Below are positions 3,666 to 33,572 of a stretch of DNA of 64,000 nucleotides, in pieces (position 1 is the stretch's first letter; the number at the start of each line of letters is the position of its first letter). Source of the DNA: Escherichia phage phita32. The position numbers and the translations under genes are program-made. The notes below the pieces were generated by a model. That model was given only the letters and a program-made list of their open reading frames with translations, was not told where the DNA came from and did no database searches. The stretch lies in the sequence record PQ758395; one strand, written 5' to 3'.

Positions 3666-3692
3666 GCCCTGCCCGAAAGGGTGGGGCTTTTT
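3666..3692 (+). terminator. rho-independent terminator (GAAA tetraloop hairpin + T5)
   Basis: GCCCTGCCC-GAAA-GGGTGGGGC 9-bp stem with two G-U pairs followed by TTTTT; same 22-nt hairpin recurs at 15391. Confidence 0.7.
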
Positions 3693-4475: not shown

Positions 4476-6543
4476 ATTTATGGCATCTGCATACAACCGT
4501 TTCGGTGAGCCAAACCCGAAAGCAACTAAGTATAAAAGTGGGGGAAGTGTGAAACGAGACTATCGTGATGAAAAAGAAGTTGAAACTGTAGAGACTGTTT
4601 TAGAAAATACTAAAATTGTCCCTGTCCCACAACAAAATATCGGTCTGATGGCTGCACAATATTTTGGTGTGCGATCAGCATTGTCCCAAGAAGACGGTGT
4701 GACAGTCACTGCAACATATTTCCCATATTACGACCGCTACGGAAATCTGTCTGGTTTCAAAAAGCGTGACTGGACTATTCCTAAAGAGCAAAGGGGCCAT
4801 TTCTCCGTTGTTGGCATCGTAAAGGCCAACTCCCAGATGTTTGGTCAAAAGCTGTGTGCATCTTCCAACAACCGTAAGCAGATTAACGTTTGTGAGGGAG
4901 AAGGTGATGTTATTGCAGCATGGCAGGCTGCATATCAGATACAAGTAAAAGGGATTCTCACCAACGCTAAAGCCCCGGCAAAGGTGAAGCAGTGGGCTAA
5001 AGAGGTCCAGGACGGGATCGACGCAGTTATCAACGGTGGTGATCTGGCAGGAAAACCATGCCTACCTTTTGTTGGAATTAACTGTGGATGTGCAAACGCA
5101 GTAGATACTTTTGCAAACAATGAGAAGTTTATCCGTAGCTATGGAACAGTTGTGCTGGCAATGGATAATGATGCAGCTAACGAGGTAGAGAAGCAAAAAC
5201 ACGTCATTAAAGGTGTTGAGGCCACGCATAATATCGCAGCATTTTTGATGGCTGATAACGTTTACCACGTAGAATACCCTGGTGAAGTAAATGACCCTGA
5301 CGGTGTAAAAGATATCCGAGACATGCTGAAGGCTAAAAAGCTGGAAGATATTGTCAACATGTTCCGGCACCCTGTTAAATATGTGCCTGATGCTGTGTCG
5401 GATTTAGAAGACTTCTCTATCGAGTCTTTGCGGAAAAAGACTTCCAACGGGGTAGATATCAGCGCAGAGTTCCCAAAACTGCAAAAAATGCTAAAAGGCT
5501 TGCACAAAGGGACACTCGTAATGCTTACAGGCCCGTCAGGTGGCGGTAAAACAACTGTAGCTAAAAAACTGGAACACTGTATTGCAAGATACCTAATGGA
5601 CCCGACATGTCCGAAGGCCGATGACTACGAAGAGGATGATCGTCTATGCATGATCCATCTTGAGGAGGACCCAGAGGAAGCAATTAACTCCTTGTATGCA
5701 AACCAGTTAGGGTTTGATGTTAAAGAGTTTGTTGAAGATCCTAGCCAGTTTTTAACTGATCAAGAACACGCAGAGATTCACCAATCATGGGCAAAAGCTG
5801 GAAAAATCAAAGTGTTCAAACATTTCGGATCTATTCCGGTGGACGAGTTGATTACTAAGCTTAAGCAAATGGTTTGCCTGTACCATTGTCGTTATATTGT
5901 ACTGGATCACCTGTCCATGGTAATTTCAGGGCTTAATGTTAAGGATGAGCGAAAAGAACTGGACATGGCTATGACCCAACTGGCTGCGTTTTGTAAGCAG
6001 TTTAACGTGTTTATCTTGGTGATCGCTCACCTCAAGCGTATAGAGATTGTGCCTCCTAAGGACAAGGATGGTAACCCGTTACCTTTCTGGTATCCTGTGC
6101 GAAAAGAGAATTTGCGAGGATCGGCTGGGCTTGAACAGTTGAGTTGGGTAGTCATAGGTGTCGAGGCCGAAGAAATGGTGGATCGTTCTCGTGGACGTGT
6201 CCGTCTGGTAGGTCTTAAAAACCGTCCAGCAAAAACTTTAGGTATTGCTGACACTTTAGTTATGGACCCTCACACAGGCAAGTTCCATGATGCCAGCAAT
6301 TGGTACTGGGACAAAGAAATGCAGATGTTTACAGACGGAGAAGGTGGGGAGGTTGTTTGGAGACCTCAGGCTATGTTTGAGGATCAGGAGCATACAGTTG
6401 TAGAAACACCTATGGGTAAGGTTGTGGCTGATAAGGTTGTAACTCCTACTGTTAAGCCTGTTGACACGCAGGAAGACCTCCAGTACGATGATCCATCCTC
6501 TGACCCTGTCCCTGGTTTTGAGGACGATGAAACGCCTTTTTAA
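4465..6543 (+). CDS. bifunctional DNA primase/helicase (Toprim + DnaB-like RecA-fold ATPase, T7 gp4-like)
   Basis: Toprim-like VCEGEGDVIAAW and LAMDNDAANE acidic motifs; Walker A LTGPSGGGKTT; Walker B YIVLDHLSM; AAGGAG SD. Confidence 0.8.
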   Translation: MGSKFMASAYNRFGEPNPKATKYKSGGSVKRDYRDEKEVETVETVLENTKIVPVPQQNIGLMAAQYFGVRSALSQEDGVTVTATYFPYYDRYGNLSGFKKRDWTIPKEQRGHFSVVGIVKANSQMFGQKLCASSNNRKQINVCEGEGDVIAAWQAAYQIQVKGILTNAKAPAKVKQWAKEVQDGIDAVINGGDLAGKPCLPFVGINCGCANAVDTFANNEKFIRSYGTVVLAMDNDAANEVEKQKHVIKGVEATHNIAAFLMADNVYHVEYPGEVNDPDGVKDIRDMLKAKKLEDIVNMFRHPVKYVPDAVSDLEDFSIESLRKKTSNGVDISAEFPKLQKMLKGLHKGTLVMLTGPSGGGKTTVAKKLEHCIARYLMDPTCPKADDYEEDDRLCMIHLEEDPEEAINSLYANQLGFDVKEFVEDPSQFLTDQEHAEIHQSWAKAGKIKVFKHFGSIPVDELITKLKQMVCLYHCRYIVLDHLSMVISGLNVKDERKELDMAMTQLAAFCKQFNVFILVIAHLKRIEIVPPKDKDGNPLPFWYPVRKENLRGSAGLEQLSWVVIGVEAEEMVDRSRGRVRLVGLKNRPAKTLGIADTLVMDPHTGKFHDASNWYWDKEMQMFTDGEGGEVVWRPQAMFEDQEHTVVETPMGKVVADKVVTPTVKPVDTQEDLQYDDPSSDPVPGFEDDETPF

Positions 6544-15390: not shown

Positions 15391-15419
15391 GCCCTGCCCG
15401 AAAGGGTGGGGCATTTTTG
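15391..15419 (+). terminator. rho-independent terminator (duplicate of 3666 element)
   Basis: Identical GCCCTGCCCGAAAGGGTGGGGC hairpin followed by ATTTTTGT. Confidence 0.7.
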
Positions 15420-18929: not shown

Positions 18930-19500
18930 TCAGGTTGCCAGAGATCAGGAGGATTTCTAAAATGGATTTCCTCCTTTTGATATTTTACCTACCAGGATAT
19001 TTTAAAATCCTTAGAAAATCAGAAAATGGATCGAAAACTAAAATGGATTTTTCAGAGCAGGCACGACGAGATGAACCACTCATCCTATCGTTTGCACCAT
19101 ATTCCAGACCACCATTACAGATTTCCCGCACATGCTCACATCCTTCTCCTAGAACTTCCCCCACTTACCCTTGACCTTTTATGGTAATGATATAACCACT
19201 ATCTTGAAGTTGCGGTGCAGCTTTCCAAGTACTCGATCTGTTTTTCGTTTCAAAGATTGAATTTTCTGAAAATTTTTCTCGATAAATTTCTCAGTACTCG
19301 ATCTGTTTTTCGTTTTCTGAATCGGATTTTCTGGAAATCGTTCCGGCTCTCGACCTGAAATTTTTGGGGACGAAATCGATTTTTCGTTTTCAGAAATGGA
19401 TTTTTAAAATTTCTATATGGGAATATTTTAGTGGATACTATTTTATAGGAAATTGTTACGGAGGGTAATTAGCGTGCTAATTAAATTTATTAAATGCGAG
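18930..19500. repeat. ORF-poor region with short direct-repeat families
   Basis: AAATGGAT(T/C) four times (about 18961, 19024, 19040, 19405); TACTCGATCTGTTTTTCGTTT twice (19221, 19293); TTTTCGTTTTC variants. Confidence 0.4.
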
Positions 19501-19674: not shown

Positions 19675-20059
19675 TTCTATCTAGCGCCCATCCCCAGTGA
19701 TTGTCTCCCCCGTCACCAGGGCCTGCCGTCCTTTCGATAGGTATATTGTGCCACCTGGCGGGGCCGCTGTCAACACCTTTCAAAAAAAAAAAATTATAAC
19801 CAGGTGCGCCCACTGCCAGGACCTGGCGGGGCCAACCTGGCAGGTCCGCGCTATAAAGTGAACAGCTACAGAAGAGGTACAAAAATGAAAGGTAATGCTA
19901 CTCACCTGGAAAATAGTAATTGATGATACGGAAGCTATCGCCCTGGTCGAGAAGGCTAAAACTGAAGCACCGGAACATAAAGAAGAGTACGAAAAACGGT
20001 GGTGATCTGGCAGGGCGGCGGCAGGTGGATTCTATCATAAAAATAATTTAAAATAATTG

Positions 20060-20138: not shown

Positions 20139-20351
20139 ATGAACGCATACGGAATCAAAGTACGTCGCAACACTCGCCAGGTGGTAACCGATCAAGTGGT
20201 TTGCCTGGTGGATGTAACCATCAACAACGGGCAAGGCCTTTATAAATTTCGTCGCGGTCATAGTTATACCCTGCAACAGCTTAACCGTTGCGCCCTGACA
20301 AAAGGTCAGATCAACCACTGGTTTAATAAAAAAATAAATATTGACATGTAG
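20139..20351 (+). CDS. hypothetical small protein
   Basis: ORF with AAGAGGA SD. Confidence 0.5.
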   Translation: MNAYGIKVRRNTRQVVTDQVVCLVDVTINNGQGLYKFRRGHSYTLQQLNRCALTKGQINHWFNKKINIDM

Positions 20352-20401: not shown

Positions 20402-20800
20402 ATGAAAACCACAACCTTTAATTTTGATAATGCTAACTTCTCTTTTTCTGATGTTAAGAACTGCCGCCGTGATCGCGGATTCTACAAGGCCTATAATCTG
20501 GTTGGCCTTGACGATGATAATAATTTGCACGAAGTGGCGGAGATCCGGTACTATGCCGCCGCCAGTGGTAACACTAACTACTGCGTTTTTTGGATACACG
20601 ACAACAAGAACAATAAGTACGGTTATACTGGCGGCAAGGCGAGCGGTCACGGTTATGATAAAGCCAACGCTGCACTTGAAAGCGCATTAAATGCCATGGG
20701 AATCACTGCTAACGGCTGGATCTATGAAGAAGAATTTTTGGCGGCACTTGCTGCCCACCTGGGCTATAAAAAGCACATTGTAACATGCGCCCACGAATAA
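20402..20800 (+). CDS. hypothetical protein
   Basis: ORF with AAGAGGA SD; Gly/Tyr-rich. Confidence 0.5.
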   Translation: MKTTTFNFDNANFSFSDVKNCRRDRGFYKAYNLVGLDDDNNLHEVAEIRYYAAASGNTNYCVFWIHDNKNNKYGYTGGKASGHGYDKANAALESALNAMGITANGWIYEEEFLAALAAHLGYKKHIVTCAHE

Positions 20801-20811
20801 AAAAAAAATAT

Positions 20812-20839
20812 TTGACACGCCACAAAATTTAAGTAGACT
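20812..20839 (+). promoter_or_regulatory. sigma70-like promoter (TTGACA-16-TAGACT) with leader hairpin
   Basis: -35 20812-20817, -10 20834-20839; GGCGGGAAACATCCCGCC hairpin 20849-20866 then CA-rich leader and SD. Confidence 0.5.
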
Positions 20840-20883
20840 ATATACAAAGGCGGGAAACATCCCGCCAACACAGAGGAAAAGCT

Positions 20884-21279
20884 ATGAATAAGAACGTACG
20901 CCGCATCATGAACGAACTGGCAAACGATGAAAAAATTATTGACATGCATTTGGTCAACATTTGCCGCCGTTGTGTAACATACAACAACCGCGCCGCAAAA
21001 GCGCGTGAGATGAACGCAAAAGGCACCTTAAAGCCCTTTCAGGTGGTTGTAAAATCTATAACTAATGCAGCAGGCCAGGCGCATGATCACAACAACGAGA
21101 GCACTAATATTGATCCGTCTTACGTAATGAAACGGATCCGGACTTGCAAGAATAAAGAGCAGGTGTATAACGTCATAGATTGGCTTGATTCCATGGGCGA
21201 CGTGGTTTACAATAGATTTTCTGCAGCTATTGAAATTCAGTTAGACAGGTTGGACGGGAAAGTACTAAAAACTTACTGA
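20884..21279 (+). CDS. hypothetical protein
   Basis: ORF with GAGGAAAAG SD. Confidence 0.5.
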   Translation: MNKNVRRIMNELANDEKIIDMHLVNICRRCVTYNNRAAKAREMNAKGTLKPFQVVVKSITNAAGQAHDHNNESTNIDPSYVMKRIRTCKNKEQVYNVIDWLDSMGDVVYNRFSAAIEIQLDRLDGKVLKTY

Positions 21280-21290
21280 GTTTATTTTTA

Positions 21291-21327
21291 GATGGCCTTG
21301 ACTCCAGGGCCATCAATAAAGTAAACT
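21291..21327 (+). promoter_or_regulatory. palindrome-embedded promoter (GATGGCC-TTGACT..-GGCCATC, -10 TAAACT), copy 1
   Basis: 7-bp inverted arms flank the -35; near-identical copies at 21912 and 25629. Confidence 0.45.
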
Positions 21328-21359
21328 AATCCCAGTTAAGCGAAAAAGGAGGCTTGAAG

Positions 21360-21479
21360 ATGAGCACTACACGCCAGCACACAAAGGTAACTATTATCGT
21401 TTGCATCATTGGTTATATCCTGGCGCAAATGTTGATGGGTAGCGCCAACGGTGTCGCAAAATTTTTCTTAAACTTTTAA
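21360..21479 (+). CDS. small hydrophobic peptide (39 aa, not in ORF track)
   Basis: ATG 21360 with AAAAAGGAGG SD; MSTTRQHTKVTIIVCIIGYILAQMLMGSANGVAKFFLNF. Confidence 0.4.
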   Translation: MSTTRQHTKVTIIVCIIGYILAQMLMGSANGVAKFFLNF

Positions 21480-21507
21480 TTGACAAGCTAACTTAGATCA
21501 GTATACT
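21480..21507 (+). promoter_or_regulatory. sigma70-like promoter (TTGACA-16-TATACT)
   Basis: -35 21480-21485, -10 21502-21507. Confidence 0.55.
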
Positions 21508-21558
21508 AAACACATAAACGGGAAAACTTCCCAGAACACACAAAAGGAGAAAAACACC

Positions 21559-21900
21559 ATGACTACTATGACCGCCGCAGAAAAAGCTATTCAGGTTGCA
21601 GCACTGAAAAAACAGATCGCAGACCTTGAGAACAAGATCGATAACTTTGAAATCGACGAGGACAAGTACGACGAAAACTATGATGAATGGTTAGACGAGA
21701 TCTACGGCGAAATTATGATCGGAAACATTTCTTTTCTTCCGTCGCGTATCCTCAAGGAGCTAGATCCTATCGCTTACCGCTGCGGATTTAGCGACTACAT
21801 CGACAGCCTGGATATTGAGGACGATGAAGAATACCAGGAATTACAGACAGAGTTGGAAGAAGCAAAAGAAGAGCTTGCAGAACTGGAAGAAAACGAGTAA
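21559..21900 (+). CDS. hypothetical acidic coiled-coil protein
   Basis: ORF with AAGGAGA SD; highly acidic C-terminus. Confidence 0.5.
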   Translation: MTTMTAAEKAIQVAALKKQIADLENKIDNFEIDEDKYDENYDEWLDEIYGEIMIGNISFLPSRILKELDPIAYRCGFSDYIDSLDIEDDEEYQELQTELEEAKEELAELEENE

Positions 21901-21911
21901 ATTTATTTTTA

Positions 21912-21948
21912 GATGGCCTTGACGCCAGGGCCATCGATAAAGTAAACT
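21912..21948 (+). promoter_or_regulatory. palindrome-embedded promoter, copy 2
   Basis: GATGGCC TTGACG CCAG GGCCATC .. TAAACT. Confidence 0.45.
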
Positions 21949-21989
21949 TTATACTGTTAACACTGAACTAATACAGAGGAGTTAAAACC

Positions 21990-22235
21990 ATGGCAGCACT
22001 AATCACCAAATACTATGCACCGACCAACACCAAAAGCGCACGCATCTTGGTAAAAGGATTCGGACGTAAAAAGGTTTACACCTGGGATTATGCCTTAGAC
22101 ATGGAAGACAACTACACCAACGCGATGACAGATTTTATTAATGAACTAAATAAACAGATCTTAACCAATTATAAGGTGACCGACATCGCCTATGTTGGGG
22201 AAGGTGGGATCTGTTTTGTCGGTATTGTCAAATAA
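21990..22235 (+). CDS. hypothetical protein
   Basis: ORF with GAGGAG SD. Confidence 0.5.
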   Translation: MAALITKYYAPTNTKSARILVKGFGRKKVYTWDYALDMEDNYTNAMTDFINELNKQILTNYKVTDIAYVGEGGICFVGIVK

Positions 22236-22247
22236 GCTGTTTTTCGG

Positions 22248-22267
22248 TGGCCCTGGTGGCAGGGCCA
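22248..22267. promoter_or_regulatory. variant palindrome TGGCCCTG-gtgg-CAGGGCCA
   Basis: 8-bp arm hairpin/operator followed by TATAAAG; related to the GATGGCC..GGCCATC family. Confidence 0.3.
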
Positions 22268-22309
22268 TCTATAAAGATAGTTTATTAACACCATGAAAGG
22301 AGAAAGTAC

Positions 22310-22663
22310 ATGATCAGTGGGGCTAGTTTTATTATTGGCGCTATTGCTACGGCTTTAATTGTAAACAAGATCCAGGATAAAAAGGAAAGAGGAAGTACCG
22401 ACCTTGCAGAATATCCATTTTGGACATTCAATGATAACGAAGATTATATTGTAAAGTATAAAAATAAAGAAGGTGACCAAGTAACACCGCGACCGATCCC
22501 GGCTTACAAGATGCAGGAAACACTATACCGCTTGGAGGCGGGAGGCGCAAAAATTGTGGACTTTTGGGGATACGATCACACAGATCAGGAAGTTATAAAG
22601 CGCCGTATCCGGGCTATTCAGGCCAATATTGAAGTTAGCAAGGGGGGAATATATGAAGATTAA
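22310..22663 (+). CDS. putative membrane-anchored protein
   Basis: N-terminal helix ISGASFIIGAIATALIVNKI; AAAGGAGAAAG SD. Confidence 0.5.
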   Translation: MISGASFIIGAIATALIVNKIQDKKERGSTDLAEYPFWTFNDNEDYIVKYKNKEGDQVTPRPIPAYKMQETLYRLEAGGAKIVDFWGYDHTDQEVIKRRIRAIQANIEVSKGGIYED

Positions 22664-22850
22664 TTTTGAGAAGATTGTAAAGCGATCTCATGATTCCGAA
22701 GAGCTGCCGGAACGCCGCCAGCGTAACAATAAACTGAATAAGCCAAAAAGATTTGGGAAGATCTGGCGGAATCATTATGATCGTAAATTGCCGGGCCTCC
22801 TTTTGGAACGTGAACGACAGGCGGAACGATACCGCCACAAAGGCAAATAA
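22653..22850 (+). CDS. hypothetical basic protein
   Basis: Start moved from track 22629 to ATG 22653 (AAGGGGGG SD); Arg/Lys-rich. Confidence 0.4.
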   Translation: MKINFEKIVKRSHDSEELPERRQRNNKLNKPKRFGKIWRNHYDRKLPGLLLERERQAERYRHKGK

Positions 22851-22859
22851 CAACCAACG

Positions 22860-22888
22860 CCCCGCTATTGTGCGGGGCTTTTTATTTC
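22860..22888 (+). terminator. rho-independent terminator
   Basis: GCCCCGC-tattgt-GCGGGGC followed by TTTTTATTT. Confidence 0.7.
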
Positions 22889-23008
22889 TATCCCGCCGAT
22901 AGCGCCCCTGGTTGGCCCCACAACGCCCTAAAGGCCCCCTACCTATGCAATCTCCTTTCTTAACCTGAAAACATCGTCAAAGGCCGTTTTAAAGCGTTAA
23001 AAATATTG

Positions 23009-23036
23009 TTGACATCTAAAATATTCTAGATATACT
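23009..23036 (+). promoter_or_regulatory. sigma70-like promoter (TTGACA-16-TATACT)
   Basis: -35 23009-23014, -10 23031-23036. Confidence 0.55.
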
Positions 23037-23071
23037 AATCACATCAAAGCGAGAAGTAAGGAGTAAACGCC

Positions 23072-23341
23072 ATGCGTAAATTGAAAAATTTTGATAAAGT
23101 CGATGTTGTCCTAAATAATTTTTACTACTGCAATAATAAAGCCGTTTGGTGGCGCGATAATTCCACCGATAAGGTTAAGGCGCGCTTTCTCCAAGGGTAC
23201 TGGCAAGGCCGTCCAGTGATTAAAATCCTGGGGCAATTGGTAGCGTTTAAAAATTGCCGCCGTGTTGACGACGTTGAAGAGATTTTAAACATTTTGCGCC
23301 ACAATAATTTAAAAATAGTGTTGACAAGTAAATATCGATAA
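23072..23341 (+). CDS. hypothetical protein
   Basis: ORF with AAGGAG SD. Confidence 0.5.
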   Translation: MRKLKNFDKVDVVLNNFYYCNNKAVWWRDNSTDKVKARFLQGYWQGRPVIKILGQLVAFKNCRRVDDVEEILNILRHNNLKIVLTSKYR

Positions 23342-23348
23342 GTATACT
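23321..23348 (+). promoter_or_regulatory. sigma70-like promoter (TTGACA-16-TATACT) with leader hairpin
   Basis: -35 23321-23326 inside 3' end of upstream gene; GGCGGGAAAACTTCCCGCC hairpin 23359-23377. Confidence 0.55.
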
Positions 23349-23405
23349 TAAACACACAGGCGGGAAAACTTCCCGCCACTAACAAAGAAAATAGGAGAAA
23401 ATATC

Positions 23406-24029
23406 ATGACCACCGTTAACATTACTACAGGTTACAATTTATCTTTCGACGTGCTGACCGACGAACAAAAAGAAAAAGCCGTTGAAATGGTCCGCGAAAG
23501 AGAAGAACACAGCGGGGATAACTTTTTTGCAGAAAGTGTAATTGAATACTATAAAGAGTATGTTTTTCCAGAGTACGGGCTTGAAGATACAGAGGTACAT
23601 TGGTCCGGCTTTTGGTGCCAGGGTGACGGCGCGTCAATCAGTGCTGAAAACGTGGACTTAGAAAAATTCTTGCGTAAAGTCAAGTCTCTGACTAAATTCC
23701 GCTCAATTCGCCACTTGTTCGGCACAATGCATGACGGGGAATTATCAGCCAGTGTTGAACGTGACACATACAGCCGCTATAGTCACGAAAACACTGTAAA
23801 CGGATACATCGATACTACTTGGCTAGACCTAACCGCCAAACAAGAAAACAAAGTGGAAGATTTGGAAGAGCTGATCACCGAGACGGTACGGGAGTTATCC
23901 CGCAAGGTTTACGTAGACTTGGAAGCGGCCTATTTGGAGCAATTCACATCTGAAAACTTGATCGGCCTTATCGAGGCCAATGATTGGCGGTTTGATGTCG
24001 ATGAATATGGTGAGATGACTTTTTCATAA
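23406..24029 (+). CDS. hypothetical acidic protein (207 aa)
   Basis: ORF with AGGAGAAAA SD; no motif assigned. Confidence 0.5.
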   Translation: MTTVNITTGYNLSFDVLTDEQKEKAVEMVREREEHSGDNFFAESVIEYYKEYVFPEYGLEDTEVHWSGFWCQGDGASISAENVDLEKFLRKVKSLTKFRSIRHLFGTMHDGELSASVERDTYSRYSHENTVNGYIDTTWLDLTAKQENKVEDLEELITETVRELSRKVYVDLEAAYLEQFTSENLIGLIEANDWRFDVDEYGEMTFS

Positions 24030-24037
24030 ATAAAGTG

Positions 24038-24065
24038 TTGCAATAACCTAAAAACCTGTTATATT
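24038..24065 (+). promoter_or_regulatory. sigma70-like promoter (TTGCAA-16-TATATT) with leader hairpin
   Basis: GGGGGCAAGACGTTTGCCCC hairpin 24075-24094. Confidence 0.45.
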
Positions 24066-24118
24066 AAAACTCAAGGGGGCAAGACGTTTGCCCCACACAA
24101 AACAAAGAGGAAAACATC

Positions 24119-24499
24119 ATGAAAAACACTACTAAAGCTATTGACACCGTTATGTTTAACCTGGTTACCTTTCGCGAGGATATGAAAGATCTTCCACGTG
24201 AAACAGTGTGCGACCATATCGAAAACTATCGCAAACTAATCAAAGAGTTGCCTTTAAAACGTGACCAGTATGCGGCTAACGCTATGCTTAACGCTATGAT
24301 CAAAAAGATGATCCAGTGTGATTTAACTCTGGCCTATGATTATGCAGGTGGTCGTTTTGCAGTATACAATCGGCCCGTGCCTGGTATGAGCACCACCGAA
24401 GAATTGCACGCGCTCAATCTAAAACAAGACGTGTGGGATAGTATGCCCCGCGTGGTGGTGTGGGCAGAAAGCGGAAAGATTTACGGCGATAATTTTTAA
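24119..24499 (+). CDS. hypothetical protein
   Basis: ORF with AGAGGAAAA SD. Confidence 0.5.
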   Translation: MKNTTKAIDTVMFNLVTFREDMKDLPRETVCDHIENYRKLIKELPLKRDQYAANAMLNAMIKKMIQCDLTLAYDYAGGRFAVYNRPVPGMSTTEELHALNLKQDVWDSMPRVVVWAESGKIYGDNF

Positions 24500-24509
24500 T
24501 CAGGTAACA

Positions 24510-24538
24510 GGCGGCGGCATATTTGCCGCCTTATTGTT
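24510..24538 (+). terminator. probable rho-independent terminator
   Basis: GGCGGC-atattt-GCCGCC then TTATTGTT. Confidence 0.55.
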
Positions 24539-24566
24539 AAACAGAACTGTAAAAGAGGTACATAGA

Positions 24567-24926
24567 ATGGAATTTATTATTCTGACTGTATTAGTTGCCT
24601 TGTTCAACGCCTGGATCGCTGGCAAGGTAGGCAGATCCGCTTTCTTATGGTTTATTATATCTATTTTCCTGGGAGTGGTTGCAACTATCATATTGGTTAT
24701 CCTTGCAATTGTTGACAAAGGTAATAATAGAAAGGGTAAAGTATTTTCCGACCTGTATGACGCACAAACGTTCGTCAACGCCTATTATGGTGATCTCCCG
24801 GTATCCCTACGCTGCAGCCTGGCACAACAGGTTTTTGATGAAGCTAAAACCAGAGATCAAGCCCATGAGATATGTTTAACTGAGGCGGATCGCCTATTTG
24901 AGAGGAATAGAAAATATGTGGGCTAA
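24567..24926 (+). CDS. putative membrane protein (two TM helices)
   Basis: Start moved from track 24534 to ATG 24567 (AAGAGG SD); helices IILTVLVALFNAWIAG and FLWFIISIFLGVVATIILVILAIV. Confidence 0.5.
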   Translation: MEFIILTVLVALFNAWIAGKVGRSAFLWFIISIFLGVVATIILVILAIVDKGNNRKGKVFSDLYDAQTFVNAYYGDLPVSLRCSLAQQVFDEAKTRDQAHEICLTEADRLFERNRKYVG

Positions 24927-25161
24927 CCGTTTAAATAACTCCGCGCTAATTAATCCCTTTAGTGAAGATTTGAAGCCAGCCGCCTGGCGTGATGGATTCA
25001 ATACCGAAGGATTTATTTTCAGGCCTGATCTTGAGGAATTTTATAACAATGGATCGAACAACGACAGAGATAATTTTTCTTGTGATGTGCGTAGCGATGG
25101 TACTCCTGGGGGCCATTGCAAACCACATCACTACTACCAGGGGGAAAGGGGGAGACGATGA
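24916..25161 (+). CDS. hypothetical protein (uncertain)
   Basis: ORF with GAGAGGAA SD; overlapping alternative-frame ORF 24989..25174 makes the assignment ambiguous. Confidence 0.25.
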   Translation: MWANRLNNSALINPFSEDLKPAAWRDGFNTEGFIFRPDLEEFYNNGSNNDRDNFSCDVRSDGTPGGHCKPHHYYQGERGRR

Positions 25162-25277
25162 CAACCAAGGATAAGCCCCGCACCGATAAGGCGCGCCGGG
25201 TTATGGTATGGCTTGAGATCATCGCCCTTGAAATATTGCTAGGCGTAGGGATGTACTTTATCGCTGTAAGTAACTAA
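25158..25277 (+). CDS. small membrane peptide (39 aa, not in ORF track)
   Basis: ATG 25158 with AGGGGGAAAGGGGGAG SD; MTTKDKPRTDKARRVMVWLEIIALEILLGVGMYFIAVSN; terminator follows. Confidence 0.4.
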   Translation: MTTKDKPRTDKARRVMVWLEIIALEILLGVGMYFIAVSN

Positions 25278-25282
25278 GAACG

Positions 25283-25310
25283 GCCCCCGATCATGGGGGC
25301 TTATCTTTTT
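25283..25310 (+). terminator. rho-independent terminator
   Basis: GCCCCC-gatcat-GGGGGC then TTATCTTTTT. Confidence 0.7.
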
Positions 25311-25332
25311 AAAAAATTTCCCTTCCAGGGTG

Positions 25333-25361
25333 TTGCAATCCGGTCCGCAATATGGATAATA
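25333..25361 (+). promoter_or_regulatory. sigma70-like promoter (TTGCAA .. GATAAT) with leader hairpin
   Basis: GGGGAGCTAATCCCC hairpin downstream; same architecture at 26149. Confidence 0.45.
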
Positions 25362-25416
25362 ACAATCAACGGGGAGCTAATCCCCACCAACACAAAAACC
25401 AGAAAGGAGAAACAAA

Positions 25417-25617
25417 ATGAGCAACAATATCCGCGTTATTAACTTCAAAAAAGAAGAAAAAATTGCCGTGCTGATTGACGGTCAAGAAATCTTCAAGGGC
25501 TATTATGAAGATCATCAAACGGCGATTAGTATCACTCGCGTGATCGGTTACCATAATTTCTACCCCCAAGGCGCTGAGGCAGCGGTTAAACGAATCAAAG
25601 AGATTGTAGGCCTGTAA
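25417..25617 (+). CDS. hypothetical small protein
   Basis: ORF with AAAGGAGAAA SD. Confidence 0.5.
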   Translation: MSNNIRVINFKKEEKIAVLIDGQEIFKGYYEDHQTAISITRVIGYHNFYPQGAEAAVKRIKEIVGL

Positions 25618-25628
25618 ATTTATTTTTA

Positions 25629-25665
25629 GATGGCCTTGACTCCAGGGCCATCAATAAAGTAAATT
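25629..25665 (+). promoter_or_regulatory. palindrome-embedded promoter, copy 3
   Basis: GATGGCC TTGACT CCAG GGCCATC .. TAAATT; near-identical to 21291 copy. Confidence 0.45.
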
Positions 25666-25707
25666 TTAATCGTGATAAAATAATCAGTGCAAAAAGGAGT
25701 AATGATC

Positions 25708-26007
25708 ATGTTCATACCCGCCAATAATCTTTATTTCTTTGATGGTCAAATCGTAGACGGTGTGGAGGTGGAGATCACCGGGTGCCCTGGTGGTCAGGTT
25801 ATGACTTTCCGGAATAATGCCTTTGATGATTCTCATATCGTTATGAGAATGGAAGTTAGTAAGCTAGATGATAAGAAAACATTGATTGACTATTCCGTCA
25901 AAGATCATCCAGACTACCACATGATCTATGGTGATTTGTGCATTGTTGACCGTGACAAGGTGGGCGGCATTGTGATCGCTATTGTGAACGATGTTTTCTC
26001 TGTATAG
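25708..26007 (+). CDS. hypothetical protein
   Basis: Start moved from track 25687 to ATG 25708 (AAGGAG SD 8 nt upstream). Confidence 0.5.
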   Translation: MFIPANNLYFFDGQIVDGVEVEITGCPGGQVMTFRNNAFDDSHIVMRMEVSKLDDKKTLIDYSVKDHPDYHMIYGDLCIVDRDKVGGIVIAIVNDVFSV

Positions 26008-26065
26008 TTCCGGTAAATGATGCAAAATAAGGCCCCTAGCAGGGCCTGCAGCGATATAATCACAT

Positions 26066-26100
26066 AAAGGCCATGCAACCGCATGGCCTTTATTATTTTG
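26066..26100 (+). terminator. rho-independent terminator
   Basis: AAAGGCCATGC-aacc-GCATGGCCTTT then ATTATTTTG. Confidence 0.6.
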
Positions 26101-26148
26101 GCGTTACAGCGGCCCCCAAGGTGCTTAAAAAATTTTTTAAAGAAGTAC

Positions 26149-26177
26149 TTGCATCAAGCCCTACAATATGGATAATA
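26149..26177 (+). promoter_or_regulatory. sigma70-like promoter (TTGCAT .. GATAAT) with leader hairpin
   Basis: GGGGGCGGCCCCC hairpin downstream. Confidence 0.45.
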
Positions 26178-26232
26178 GGACGTGTCGGGGGGCGGCCCCC
26201 AATCATTAACCGGATAGATAGGAGTTAAAATC

Positions 26233-26517
26233 ATGGCTATTGTTACCGTTGGCGATGTAGTAGAAATGGAAGCAAAATACTTAAAAGCGGGTATGCATAT
26301 CCTACGGAATGATCAAGAGTTACTATTAACGATGGTCGACTATAATCCCGGCCAGGATTATCCAAGCATCGACTACTTTTTTGAGTATGTTGATGAAGAG
26401 TTGAAAGAGGATGAGGCCTATTGCGGTGAGTTCTGCAACTTCTTTTGTCCTGATGAGGTTGTAAAGGTTATTTATCAACCTGGCGTAGCTTTCCCGCTGC
26501 ACGCTATCAATAAATAA
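26233..26517 (+). CDS. hypothetical protein
   Basis: ORF with AGGAG SD. Confidence 0.5.
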   Translation: MAIVTVGDVVEMEAKYLKAGMHILRNDQELLLTMVDYNPGQDYPSIDYFFEYVDEELKEDEAYCGEFCNFFCPDEVVKVIYQPGVAFPLHAINK

Positions 26518-33359: not shown

Positions 33360-33572
33360 TCATAGTCTACCACCCCTGAACTCTTCGTGCTCAGGCATAA
33401 TAGAGAACCAGATATCTACGATGTCCTCCCACGTCAGGTCATCAGCCTCAGGATCCACCTGGAGCAAAGATGGAGAGTCTTCAGAATCGAAGTTTTCCTC
33501 TTTAACTGGCTCAGCCAAGGGACATATGGTCACTCCTTTGGATGTTTCTTCAGATGCATGTGTGTTGATCAT
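33360..33572 (-). CDS. hypothetical acidic protein
   Basis: ORF; ATGA overlap with upstream small peptide gene. Confidence 0.45.
   Translation of the reverse strand: MINTHASEETSKGVTICPLAEPVKEENFDSEDSPSLLQVDPEADDLTWEDIVDIWFSIMPEHEEFRGGRL

Follow-up and report, generated by a model that had tools for sequence, protein, structure and literature searches.

A putative promoter embedded in a repeated hairpin in the early region of an rV5-like coliphage, and its likeness to PeSL elements

INTRODUCTION

Promoter-early stem-loop elements (PeSLs) have been described in T4-like phages (Arbiol et al., 2010 [PMC2839356]; Comeau et al., 2014 [PMC4122927]). Their layout comprises a stop codon in an AT-rich tract, sigma-70 boxes, a G-T-paired stem-loop, a Shine-Dalgarno sequence (SD), and an ATG; in one subclass the stem-loop overlaps the -35 box. 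PeSLs are located in ORFan-rich regions, and indels at these motifs between close relatives leave a chimeric motif (PMC2839356; PMC4122927). A second related arrangement is that of promoter-coupled terminators, which have a T-tract between the hairpin and the -10 box and a transcript end about 10 bp before the next start (Fletcher et al., bioRxiv 2026, doi 10.64898/2026.08.19.745784).

Here, we analyse a repeat from a coliphage of another lineage. The window, i.e., the complete stretch of 64,000 nucleotides that was analysed, represents an rV5-like coliphage (Vequintavirus) with 92–94% nt identity to rV5-like phages. Such phages are widely isolated for biocontrol. We consider it probable that the repeat is a composite intergenic cassette of the PeSL type.

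RESULTS AND DISCUSSION

The repeat family and its genomic setting

The repeat units are found in the early, ORFan-rich region, between small genes. All flanking ORFs belong to PHROGs of unknown function, except for one T7 gp1.1-like protein. A pattern search of the window retrieved the core GATGGCCTTGAC[T/G]CCAGGGCCATC at 21291–21314, 21912–21935, and 25629–25652, and a variant core, GGTGGCCCTGGTGGCAGGGCCATC, at 22246–22269. The core pattern has five matches in the window, compared to 0.08 expected from shuffles. The fifth match, which has 2 mismatches and lies at 33420, does not belong to the repeat family. By repeat search, the four units constitute one 55-nt family with 85–95% sequence identity (65% for the variant), and a covariance model of the family detects only four loci in the 64 kb: unit 1 (21279–21327, 82 bits), unit 2 (21902–21948), the variant unit V (22232–22285), and unit 3 (25616–25666). 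The units, with their stems, putative promoters, flanking ORFs, and cassettes, are all on the plus strand. An earlier note on this DNA had reported three near-identical units and a variant palindrome, which we confirm, its coordinates and consensus being correct to 1–2 nt. It had also proposed a genome-wide search for copies; within the 64 kb, the search returned the four loci, all between small ORFs. Its description of a perfect palindrome with 7-bp arms holds only in part: the inverted arms are real but are 10 bp long (GATGGCCTTG/CAGGGCCATC), and the extended palindrome is imperfect because one position is a T·G pair.

At all four units, the stop codon of a small upstream ORF abuts or overlaps the 5' base of the hairpin. 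The ORF upstream of unit 1 (20884–21279) ends with a TGA (21277–21279) at the unit start, a TAA (21898–21900) precedes unit 2, and the TAA (22233–22235) of ORF 21990–22235 sits within the lower stem of unit V. The distance from the 3' end of the unit to the next ribosome-binding site is 17–30 nt, with SD/ATG 17–45 nt downstream at the four sites. Unit V is a true member of the family; it recombined with unit 2 in phage 241Ecol014PP (see below).

A conserved two-tier hairpin

Every unit folds as a two-tier hairpin of 20–23 bp, with an RNA dG of -21 to -30 kcal/mol and z-scores of -5.9 to -7.4 (unit 1: -25.1, z -6.2; unit 2: -21.4; unit V: -30.5, z -7.4; unit 3: -23.1, z -7.0). The upper stem is G·C-rich and has 10 bp, including one G·U pair, and a 4-nt loop; in each unit the upper stem-loop occupies the core positions given above. 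The lower stem is formed between the T-tract 5' of the upper stem and the A-rich tract 3' of it. As the flanking tracts TTTATTTTT and AATAAAGTAAA pair mutually, the whole unit is a single two-tier hairpin. The lower stem of unit 1 is formed by 21279–21288 and 21318–21327; the complete hairpin of unit 2 covers 21902–21946. The helix consists of 10 bp, a 2x3 internal loop, and another 10 bp, immediately after the stop codon. A search of Rfam with the units gave no match.

Conservation of the structure was analysed with 44 distinct unit sequences from 20 genomes. In this set, 97.6% of the pair cells are paired, compared to 37–55% in slid controls. Four pairs of the lower helix are altered on both sides, i.e., are compensatory. 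The covariation score is 0.191 versus 0.122 for shuffled data and was exceeded by none of 500 shuffles, the covariation arising from few independent events, some of which are between paralogous sites. The lower stem of unit V shows an orthologous covariation from C-G to U-A. Variation in the upper stem is almost solely restricted to G·U wobbles on the plus strand. The minus strand pairs at only 85.2% of the cells in the 44 sequences, and the mean RNA MFE is -23.9 for the plus strand versus -14.6 for the minus strand, the plus strand being better in 43 of 44 cases; under DNA parameters this asymmetry nearly vanishes. The stem is broken in three variants, namely by a 5-bp deletion at site 1 of phage Gotham, by a U·U apposition at site 2 of phiWec193, and by a bulge at site V of Alma. 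The units have a pi of 0.040, compared to 0.031–0.049 for codon positions 1+2, 0.167–0.180 for third positions, and 0.132 for leaders; for unit V, pi is 0.062 versus about 0.20 at nearby third positions. The units have a conserved structure with covariation and a plus-strand wobble bias, and are under purifying selection.

These data bear on the idea that the units are functionless remnants of a duplicated intergenic segment, a neutral or selfish repeat kept similar by gene conversion. There are just four copies, the family is confined to one genus, unit 2 looks mosaic, its left half resembling unit 3 and its right half unit 1, and Gotham tolerates its deletion in unit 1. However, unit V retains its low diversity without an identical conversion partner, compensatory and wobble-only changes are present, and all four sites are kept at fixed positions in about 120 genomes. 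We attach very little probability to this idea.

A putative promoter in units 1–3

Units 1–3 carry the boxes TTGACN-18-TAAAYT, which match sigma-70-like boxes at 9 of 12 positions with a suboptimal 18-nt spacer; such matches are common by chance (77 versus 45.5 expected in 19 kb). The putative promoter of unit 1 (21298–21327) consists of TTGACT (21298–21303) and TAAACT (21322–21327), with a predicted start at about 21334 and a downstream ORF at 21360–21479. The boxes of unit 2 are TTGACG (21919–21924) and TAAACT (21943–21948), with a predicted start at about 21955. Those of unit 3 are TTGACT (25636–25641) and TAAATT (25660–25665), with a predicted start at about 25672 and a downstream ORF at 25708–26007. 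Of the -35 box, TTG belongs to the stem and AC is part of the 4-nt loop. TTGAC is essentially invariant across genomes, while loop positions 3–4 of units 1–3 take up to 4 states. In unit V, the hairpin is kept but the TTGAC -35 box is absent, and the loop varies at positions 2–4.

The U-run upstream of the hairpin is best read as a candidate UP element. At sites 2 and 3, its sequence, AAATTTATTTT (21899–21909 in unit 2), matches the distal UP consensus AAAWWTWTTTT at 11 of 11 positions, with its centre near -51. PhagePromoter calls the orthologous sites 2 and 3 in phage Gotham. The units are omitted from the stringent promoter and terminator lists of the rV5 authors, and our literature search found no experimental mapping of 5' or 3' ends for any Vequintavirus. 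A promoter with its -35 box in a palindrome, as claimed in the earlier note, is plausible at units 1–3, given the boxes, the Gotham calls, and the UP-like tract, but the claim does not extend to unit V. From these features we infer that units 1–3 would have promoter activity.

Retention of the hairpin without a -35 box in unit V means that the promoter could be incidental. The repeat would then be an RNA-only element: a conserved intercistronic hairpin, either an RNase III site of the T7 early type or a barrier to 3' exonucleases. This would suit the covariation in unit V, the plus-strand wobble bias with its large RNA-specific energy asymmetry, the interrupted helix straight after the stop codon, and the limited match of the promoter boxes. 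It leaves unexplained why TTGAC is invariant at units 1–3 while neighbouring loop positions vary freely, why the UP-like tract fits its consensus completely and in the correct register, why the spacing to the downstream SD/ATG fits a promoter, and why PhagePromoter calls two of the sites. We consider an RNA-only element unlikely.

The earlier note also saw in the palindrome the geometry of an operator; in this reading, the 10-bp inverted arms would bind a dimeric phage or host regulator of the overlapping promoter. The overlap with the -35 box would permit this, and a terminator palindrome doubling as a LexA site is a precedent (yobI/ruvA). The pattern of substitutions argues against it: variants in the arms are transitions in one arm, which break the half-site symmetry and preserve pairing on the plus strand, being G·U-compatible there and giving A·C mismatches on the minus strand. 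Covariation extends to the lower stem, beyond the palindrome, and in unit V the palindrome is conserved where there is no -35 box to regulate. Moreover, a palindrome surrounds the -35 box in just 3 of about 20 early promoters, and no candidate regulator was identified. We regard an operator as very unlikely.

Transcript start and termination

The alternative offered in the earlier note, a hairpin at the start of the transcript, is not supported, as the predicted starts all lie 3' of the complete hairpin. The hairpin would be contained solely in RNA that reads through from the gene before it. That the units are not standard terminators, as had also been noted, agrees with our results. On neither strand is a U-rich run found within 0–2 nt of the G·C-rich hairpin, which is followed by AAUAAAGUAAA on the plus strand and UAAAAAUAAA on the minus strand. 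The units are called neither by a consensus terminator scan nor in the ARNold-type terminator annotations of the related records EdH4 and Alma; canonical terminators are called nearby at 22859, 24509, 25282, and 26064. The missing 3' U-run excludes a canonical intrinsic terminator and makes a terminator role doubtful.

Gene cassettes between the units

Cassette A (21328–21901), between units 1 and 2, contains ORFs 21360–21479 (39 aa) and 21559–21900 (113 aa) and a strong promoter of its own (21480–21507). Phages ECP26, ime, and phiWec189 and one IMG/VR contig lack this cassette and retain a single chimeric unit 1/2. Cassette B (21949–22231), between units 2 and V, contains ORF 21990–22235 (81 aa). 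It is absent from 241Ecol014PP, where a unit 2/V chimera is left, with the crossover in the shared 6-bp ATAAAG. These are two independent cassette deletions in relatives with breakpoints inside units: the units mark points of gene-cassette gain or loss. In YP-6, a third indel of an ORF was found, for which the crossover maps to the -35 boxes of two further early promoters, with 7-bp microhomology.

Such deletions might suggest a dedicated recombination site, folded as a single strand like an integron attC site, at which a site-specific recombinase excises and inserts ORFan cassettes as circles. The units bound cassettes, one chimeric unit remains after loss, the imperfect and strand-asymmetric hairpin fits, and T4-like phages have been reported to form PeSL mini-circles. 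If this were so, early ORFan cassettes could be excised as circles and exchanged between co-infecting phages; the phage would have a cassette array without a recognisable integrase, and the embedded promoter would secure expression wherever a cassette lands. However, the YP-6 indel used just 7 bp of microhomology at unrelated promoter boxes and the unit 2/V crossover lies within 6 bp, both of which fit generic homologous or microhomology recombination. In addition, the rV5-like phages have a strictly lytic life cycle, the early-region stretches of about 11 kb examined in related records carry no annotated recombinase, and the strand asymmetry is negligible under DNA parameters. We regard a dedicated recombination site as very unlikely.

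A composite cassette of the PeSL type

The PeSL-type cassette, which we favour, would act at three levels. At the DNA level, units 1–3 would provide a host sigma-70 promoter, composed of the UP-like T-tract, TTGAC in the apex of the palindrome, N18, and TAAAYT, and the transcript would begin about 26–35 nt 5' of the next ORF, past the hairpin. At the RNA level, read-through from the upstream gene would form the plus-strand hairpin right after the stop codon at all four units. This hairpin might form a barrier or a processing structure at the 3' end of the upstream cistron, and/or work as an attenuator or insulator. At the genome level, the near-identical direct repeats would be substrates for homologous or microhomology recombination or for replication slippage; recombination between units would presumably remove or add the intervening ORFs and leave one chimeric unit.

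This assignment would carry the PeSL concept, that of promoter/stem-loop cassettes which serve at once as signals for expression and as breakpoints at which accessory genes recombine, beyond T4-like phages into a subfamily of large lytic coliphages unrelated to them. It accounts for specific differences in gene content among rV5-like genomes, and points to three probable early promoters and four RNA structures which are overlooked in current annotations, the one of the type phage included. The units are a compact natural case of a putative promoter wholly within a conserved RNA hairpin, which bears on work on promoter-terminator coupling.

Comparison with known systems

T7 early RNase III sites such as R1.1 are intercistronic and have a helix of about 20 bp with a small asymmetric internal loop. 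The units resemble R1.1 in being intercistronic in early phage RNA and in their interrupted helix of about 20 bp, but share no sequence similarity with it. With intrinsic (including bidirectional) terminators they share a stable G·C-rich hairpin after a stop codon and flanking A/T tracts which pair. The polarity, however, is reversed on both strands, the T-tract being 5' and the A-tract 3'. As in the promoter-coupled terminators of Fletcher et al. (2026), stem-loop DNA coincides with the -35 box of the next gene between tandem genes. In contrast to that system, the spacer between the hairpin and the -10 box is (A/G)ATAAAG and the T-tract is 5' of the hairpin, so that canonical termination is not expected at the units.

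The standard early promoter of Vequintavirinae is AAAA(N4)TGTTGAC(N17)TATAAT (Certrevirus paper, PMC7344957). The putative promoters of the units share with it the TTGAC -35 box, the A/T-rich upstream region, and the location among short early ORFs. Other early promoters in the window match at 11–12 of 12 positions and have no hairpin; the standard class (21480, 23009, 23321) matches at 11 of 12 positions, with N16–17 and no palindrome at the -35 box. Judged by their boxes, the putative promoters of the units are a separate class with weaker consensus, embedded in a hairpin.

The correspondence to PeSLs is closer. All four units extend from an AT-rich stop tract to SD/ATG among small ORFans, and three of them have sigma-70-like boxes with an AT-rich upstream region, which we take as putative promoters. 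Unit V, without a -35 box, has its counterpart in the "degraded" or half PeSLs described by Comeau et al. (2014; PMC4122927). A stable stem-loop is found at the promoter boxes, with the -35 box in the upper stem-loop and the UP-like tract and -10 box in the lower stem. ORF indels with breakpoints in the motif and a resulting chimera were found for units 1x2 (three GenBank phages and one IMG/VR contig) and units 2xV (241Ecol014PP). There are also differences. PeSLs are heterogeneous and number about 50 per T4-like genome, versus four copies of one sequence family here. With 9/12 and N18, the promoter boxes match less well than those of the RB49/phi1 PeSLs. The hairpin is two-tiered, with the UP-like tract folded against the -10 region, which places the whole putative promoter inside the hairpin. 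The PeSL class is also characterised by promoter activity and stem-loop attenuator/terminator activity in reporters and by cassette mini-circles detectable by inverse PCR; the units are likened to it in sequence and predicted structure. The T4-type stem-loop that has been tested may differ from the hairpin of the units. The units belong to Vequintavirinae rather than to the T4-like lineage, which is a difference of lineage and not of mechanism. The units are probably of the same kind as the PeSLs of T4-like phages: they are real and largely familiar, and do not represent a new kind of system.

Distribution and genomic setting of the repeat units

A scan of the window for the motif GATGGCC-N10-GGCCATC returned five matches against 0.08 expected: copies at 21291, 21912, and 25629, a variant at 22246, and an unrelated match at 33420. 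A repeat search merged the four copies into a single 55-nt family, which confirms the repeated promoter/palindrome motif described in the earlier note. A covariance model of the family matched just these four loci in 64 kb and revealed no further member in the window; its minus-strand matches fall on the four palindromes again, with scores about half as high. The copies are referred to as units 1 (21279-21327), 2 (21902-21948), V (22232-22285), and 3 (25616-25666), all on the plus strand. Units 1-3 carry a putative promoter; unit V is a variant with a full hairpin and no -35 box.

BLAST with a single unit matched only Vequintavirus (346 places in 120 records, typically three to a genome); the type phage V5/rV5 is among the matches. 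The papers on rV5, the O177 phage, and Certrevirus do not describe the units, and an Rfam scan of 15-34 kb in E-value mode gave no relevant match. A pattern scan of IMG/VR, combined with a protein-based locus search, yielded two vequintavirus contigs only; matches to a 15-base pattern in the metagenome scan were almost all due to chance. By tblastn, the ORF between units 2 and V has homologues in unrelated, non-syntenic phages, which are of no use for covariation analysis.

Matches to the region 20500-26500 come from 123 phage records, with nucleotide identities of about 90-95%. The named ones are rV5-like coliphages (genus Vequintavirus), except for a few whose names say little ("Phage 203/206") and 17 records labeled "Campylobacter phage". 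The latter (GenBank MG0656xx, host Campylobacter jejuni) share ~92% identity with E. coli rV5-like phages and have the units; their Campylobacter host looks doubtful, and they may be contaminants or mislabeled. In this stretch, the annotated genes of related records are small plus-strand ORFs, with rare exceptions, and all eight ORFs adjoining the units belong to PHROGs of unknown function. One of the eight, at 22653-22847 (65 aa), also matches Pfam PF08200 (bacteriophage T7 protein 1.1, E = 1e-10), a T7-type early gene placed within a myovirus early region.

The stretch contains many near-consensus sigma-70 promoters, e.g. TTGACA-16/17-TATACT at 20341, 21480, 23009, and 23321. They agree with the early-promoter consensus of the sister genus Certrevirus, AAAA(N4)TGTTGAC(N17)TATAAT (PMC7344957). 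From its promoters and gene content, we treat the stretch as a probable early, accessory-gene region. In the upstream portion of this region, several ORFs of rV5 (DQ832317, locus 1-1326) are annotated as RB49-ORFan-like. RB49 is the coliphage in which promoter-early stem-loops (PeSLs) were discovered, which hints that the rV5 and RB49 lineages have exchanged early ORFan cassettes.

A second type of repeated cassette occurs at 21480-21544 and 23321-23386 (also 20042-20066/23303-23327; families D6 and D13). Its early promoter is close to consensus (GTGTTGACA-16-TATACT), with a small leader hairpin, CGGGAAAACTTCCCG, at about +5 and an upstream AATAATTTAAAA common to the copies. The cassette resembles the PeSL subclass that has its stem-loop downstream of the -10 box. 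A ~47-nt direct repeat is present three times at 19219-19404 (spacing 65-74 nt, no convincing ORF; families D2 and D4), where Tandem Repeats Finder called no array. Very stable G·C-rich folds (-29.6 kcal/mol) lie nearby at 19801-19856. The genome-map legend of the rV5 paper marks an ORF-free "non-coding" box, a possible counterpart of the stretch at 19219-19404.

Architecture of the units

The inverted arms extend over 10 bp (GAUGGCCUUG/CAGGGCCAUC), one of the pairs being U·G, and enclose a 4-nt loop. Beyond a 2x3 internal loop, an upstream UUUAUUUUU tract pairs with a downstream AAAGUAAA(C/U)U tract, so that each unit forms a two-tier hairpin of 20-23 bp (RNA dG -21.4 to -30.5 kcal/mol, z -5.9 to -7.4). 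These hairpins rank among the most stable plus-strand folds of the window. At each of the four sites, the upstream ORF ends in a stop codon that touches or overlaps the first paired base, and the next Shine-Dalgarno sequence lies 17-30 nt past the last paired base.

In units 1-3, the putative -35 and -10 boxes are TTGAC(T/G) and TAAA(C/T)T, separated by an 18-nt spacer. TTG is located at the top of the 5' arm and AC in the loop, and the -10 box lies within the 3' strand of the lower stem. Upstream of the boxes, sites 2 and 3 carry the tract AAATTTATTTT, which agrees with the distal half of the UP-element consensus AAAWWTWTTTTNNNAAA at 11/11 positions; it is centered near -51, the expectation for the distal subsite being about -52. 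TTGAC is invariant at units 1-3, the sole exception being TTGATA in a metagenomic contig, and at loop positions 3 and 4 of these units there are as many as four states. Unit V, where the -35 box is missing, varies at each of loop positions 2-4. The same -35/-10 pair was called by PhagePromoter at sites 2 and 3 by the annotators of Gotham. The promoter match of the units is 9/12 only, with an 18-nt spacer, a grade at which chance matches are frequent, and the units are absent from the stringent lists of the rV5 paper and from the rV5 GenBank record. A search of the literature found no mapping of transcript starts or ends for Vequintavirus. We infer from these sequence features that units 1-3 probably have promoter activity.

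Starts are predicted at about 21334, 21955, and 25672, downstream of the entire hairpin. The proposal of an RNA hairpin at the transcript start is thus not upheld: a transcript initiated at a unit would lack the hairpin, which would be present only in read-through RNA from the upstream gene.

Unit 3 of SYGMH1 (about 7948 in the extracted locus) has an additional A 3' of the stem, resulting in a 19-nt spacer. The related HMD-6 (about 7946) has the same A and a loop shorter by 1 nt, which brings the spacer to 18 nt. This may be a compensatory indel that keeps promoter spacing, or slippage in a C-run.

The hairpins were considered as canonical terminators and rejected on both strands, in agreement with the earlier view that they are not standard terminators. 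The sequence directly 3' of the hairpin is AAUAAAG on the plus strand and UAAAAAUAAA on the minus strand. A consensus scan called canonical terminators at 22859, 24509, 25282, and 26064 and left the units uncalled; the terminator annotations of phages EdH4 and Alma likewise skip them. No upstream hairpin that would take the T-tract as its U-run was found, the best fold at each site being the unit itself. The terminator at 26064-26093 is of a canonical bidirectional type (ATAAAGGCCATGC-AACC-GCATGGCCTTTAT, then TATTTTGG); it has the words ATAAAG and GGCCAT in common with the units but shows normal A-stem-T polarity. Two further canonical terminators, at 3666-3692 and 15391-15417 (GCCCTGCCCGAAAGGGTGGGGC followed by a T-run; family D9), are near-identical despite lying 11.7 kb apart.

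Conservation of the structure

The four sites were retrieved from 19 further genomes via flanking homology, and 44 distinct sequences were aligned. Among 872 pair cells of the two-tier structure, 97.6% are standard pairs, compared to 37-55% with the 3' partners displaced by 1-3 columns. In the lower helix, four pairs show changes on both sides; one of them, in unit V, switched from C-G to U-A between orthologs, with no intermediates. The covariation score of 0.191 (shuffled: 0.122) was exceeded in 0/500 shuffles, though the independent events are few and some of the covariation involves paralogous sites.

In the upper helix, changes are one-sided and always lead to G·U. Stem position 6 changes from C to U in unit V of most genomes and in unit 1 of FFH2; the loop-closing pair also shows C to U, in unit 3 of EdH4, phiWec189, and Alma and in unit 1 of SYGMH1; and unit V of phiWec193 has A to G. 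Read on the minus strand, these wobble changes are A·C mismatches. Pairing is 97.6% on the plus strand versus 85.2% on the minus strand, with a mean RNA MFE of -23.9 versus -14.6 kcal/mol, and the plus-strand fold is better in 43 of the 44 sequences. The fact that this asymmetry nearly vanishes with DNA parameters (-12.3 vs. -10.7) favors a structure at the RNA level. Disruptive variants do occur: a 5-bp deletion in unit 1 of Gotham, a U·U mismatch in unit 2 of phiWec193, and a 1-nt bulge in unit V of Alma.

The inverted arms had also been interpreted as an operator for a dimeric regulator. This reading is kept formally alive by the finding that a terminator palindrome can also serve as a LexA site (preprint of Fletcher et al., 2026). 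Against it stand the strand-asymmetric substitutions, the covariation in the lower stem, and unit V, which has no promoter.

Nucleotide diversity of the units (0.040) equals that of the flanking ORFs at codon positions 1+2 (0.031-0.049) and is 3-4 times below that of third positions (0.167-0.180) and adjacent leaders (0.132). Diversity is also low in unit V (0.062 vs. about 0.20 at neighboring third positions), although it has no identical partner for gene conversion. We consider the unit a real, conserved, and selected composite element. As to the hairpin RNA, we infer a function as attenuator, 3' barrier, or processing site.

Loss of cassettes

The interval between units 1 and 2 (21328-21901, two ORFs, repeat spacing 621 bp) is missing in ECP26, ime, phiWec189, and one IMG/VR contig and is retained in most of ~120 records. 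The alleles without it have a single unit, flanked on the left as unit 1 is and on the right as unit 2 is, and the four carriers differ in flanking haplotype and country of origin. Phage 241Ecol014PP lacks the ORF between units 2 and V (interval 21949-22231); the unit left is a 2/V chimera with the crossover in the common ATAAAG. YP-6 (about 5900-6020 in the extracted locus) lacks the 624-nt ORF found at 23406-24029 in the window. Its junction is a hybrid promoter: the crossover falls within AGTGTTG, where the promoters at 23321 and 24038 have their -35 boxes. Because this crossover involves two other early promoters, promoter cassettes generally serve as breakpoints, with no specific site required. 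For isim and FFH2, replacement of the ORF at site 3 was considered and rejected: the protein is 95% identical, and the leader alone differs.

Comparison with known systems

Promoter-coupled terminators (Fletcher et al., 2026) have the -35-in-stem-loop geometry in common with the units but carry a T-tract between hairpin and -10 box, which the units lack.

PeSLs were defined in T4-like phages (Arbiol et al., 2010, PMC2839356; Comeau et al., 2014, PMC4122927). They are repeated intergenic cassettes that run from the stop codon of the upstream gene, set in an AT-rich tract, to the SD/ATG. Within them are -35/-10 boxes of sigma-70-like type and a stem-loop that includes G-T pairs and may overlap the -35 box. 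They cluster among ORFans, and recombination between them removes or adds ORFs (PMC2839356, PMC4122927). All sequence-level criteria of PeSLs apply to the units, whose structure, selection, and role as cassette breakpoints are evident from comparison among genomes. The units differ in lineage (Vequintavirus rather than T4-like phages); they are probably best filed as PeSLs, here in Vequintavirus.
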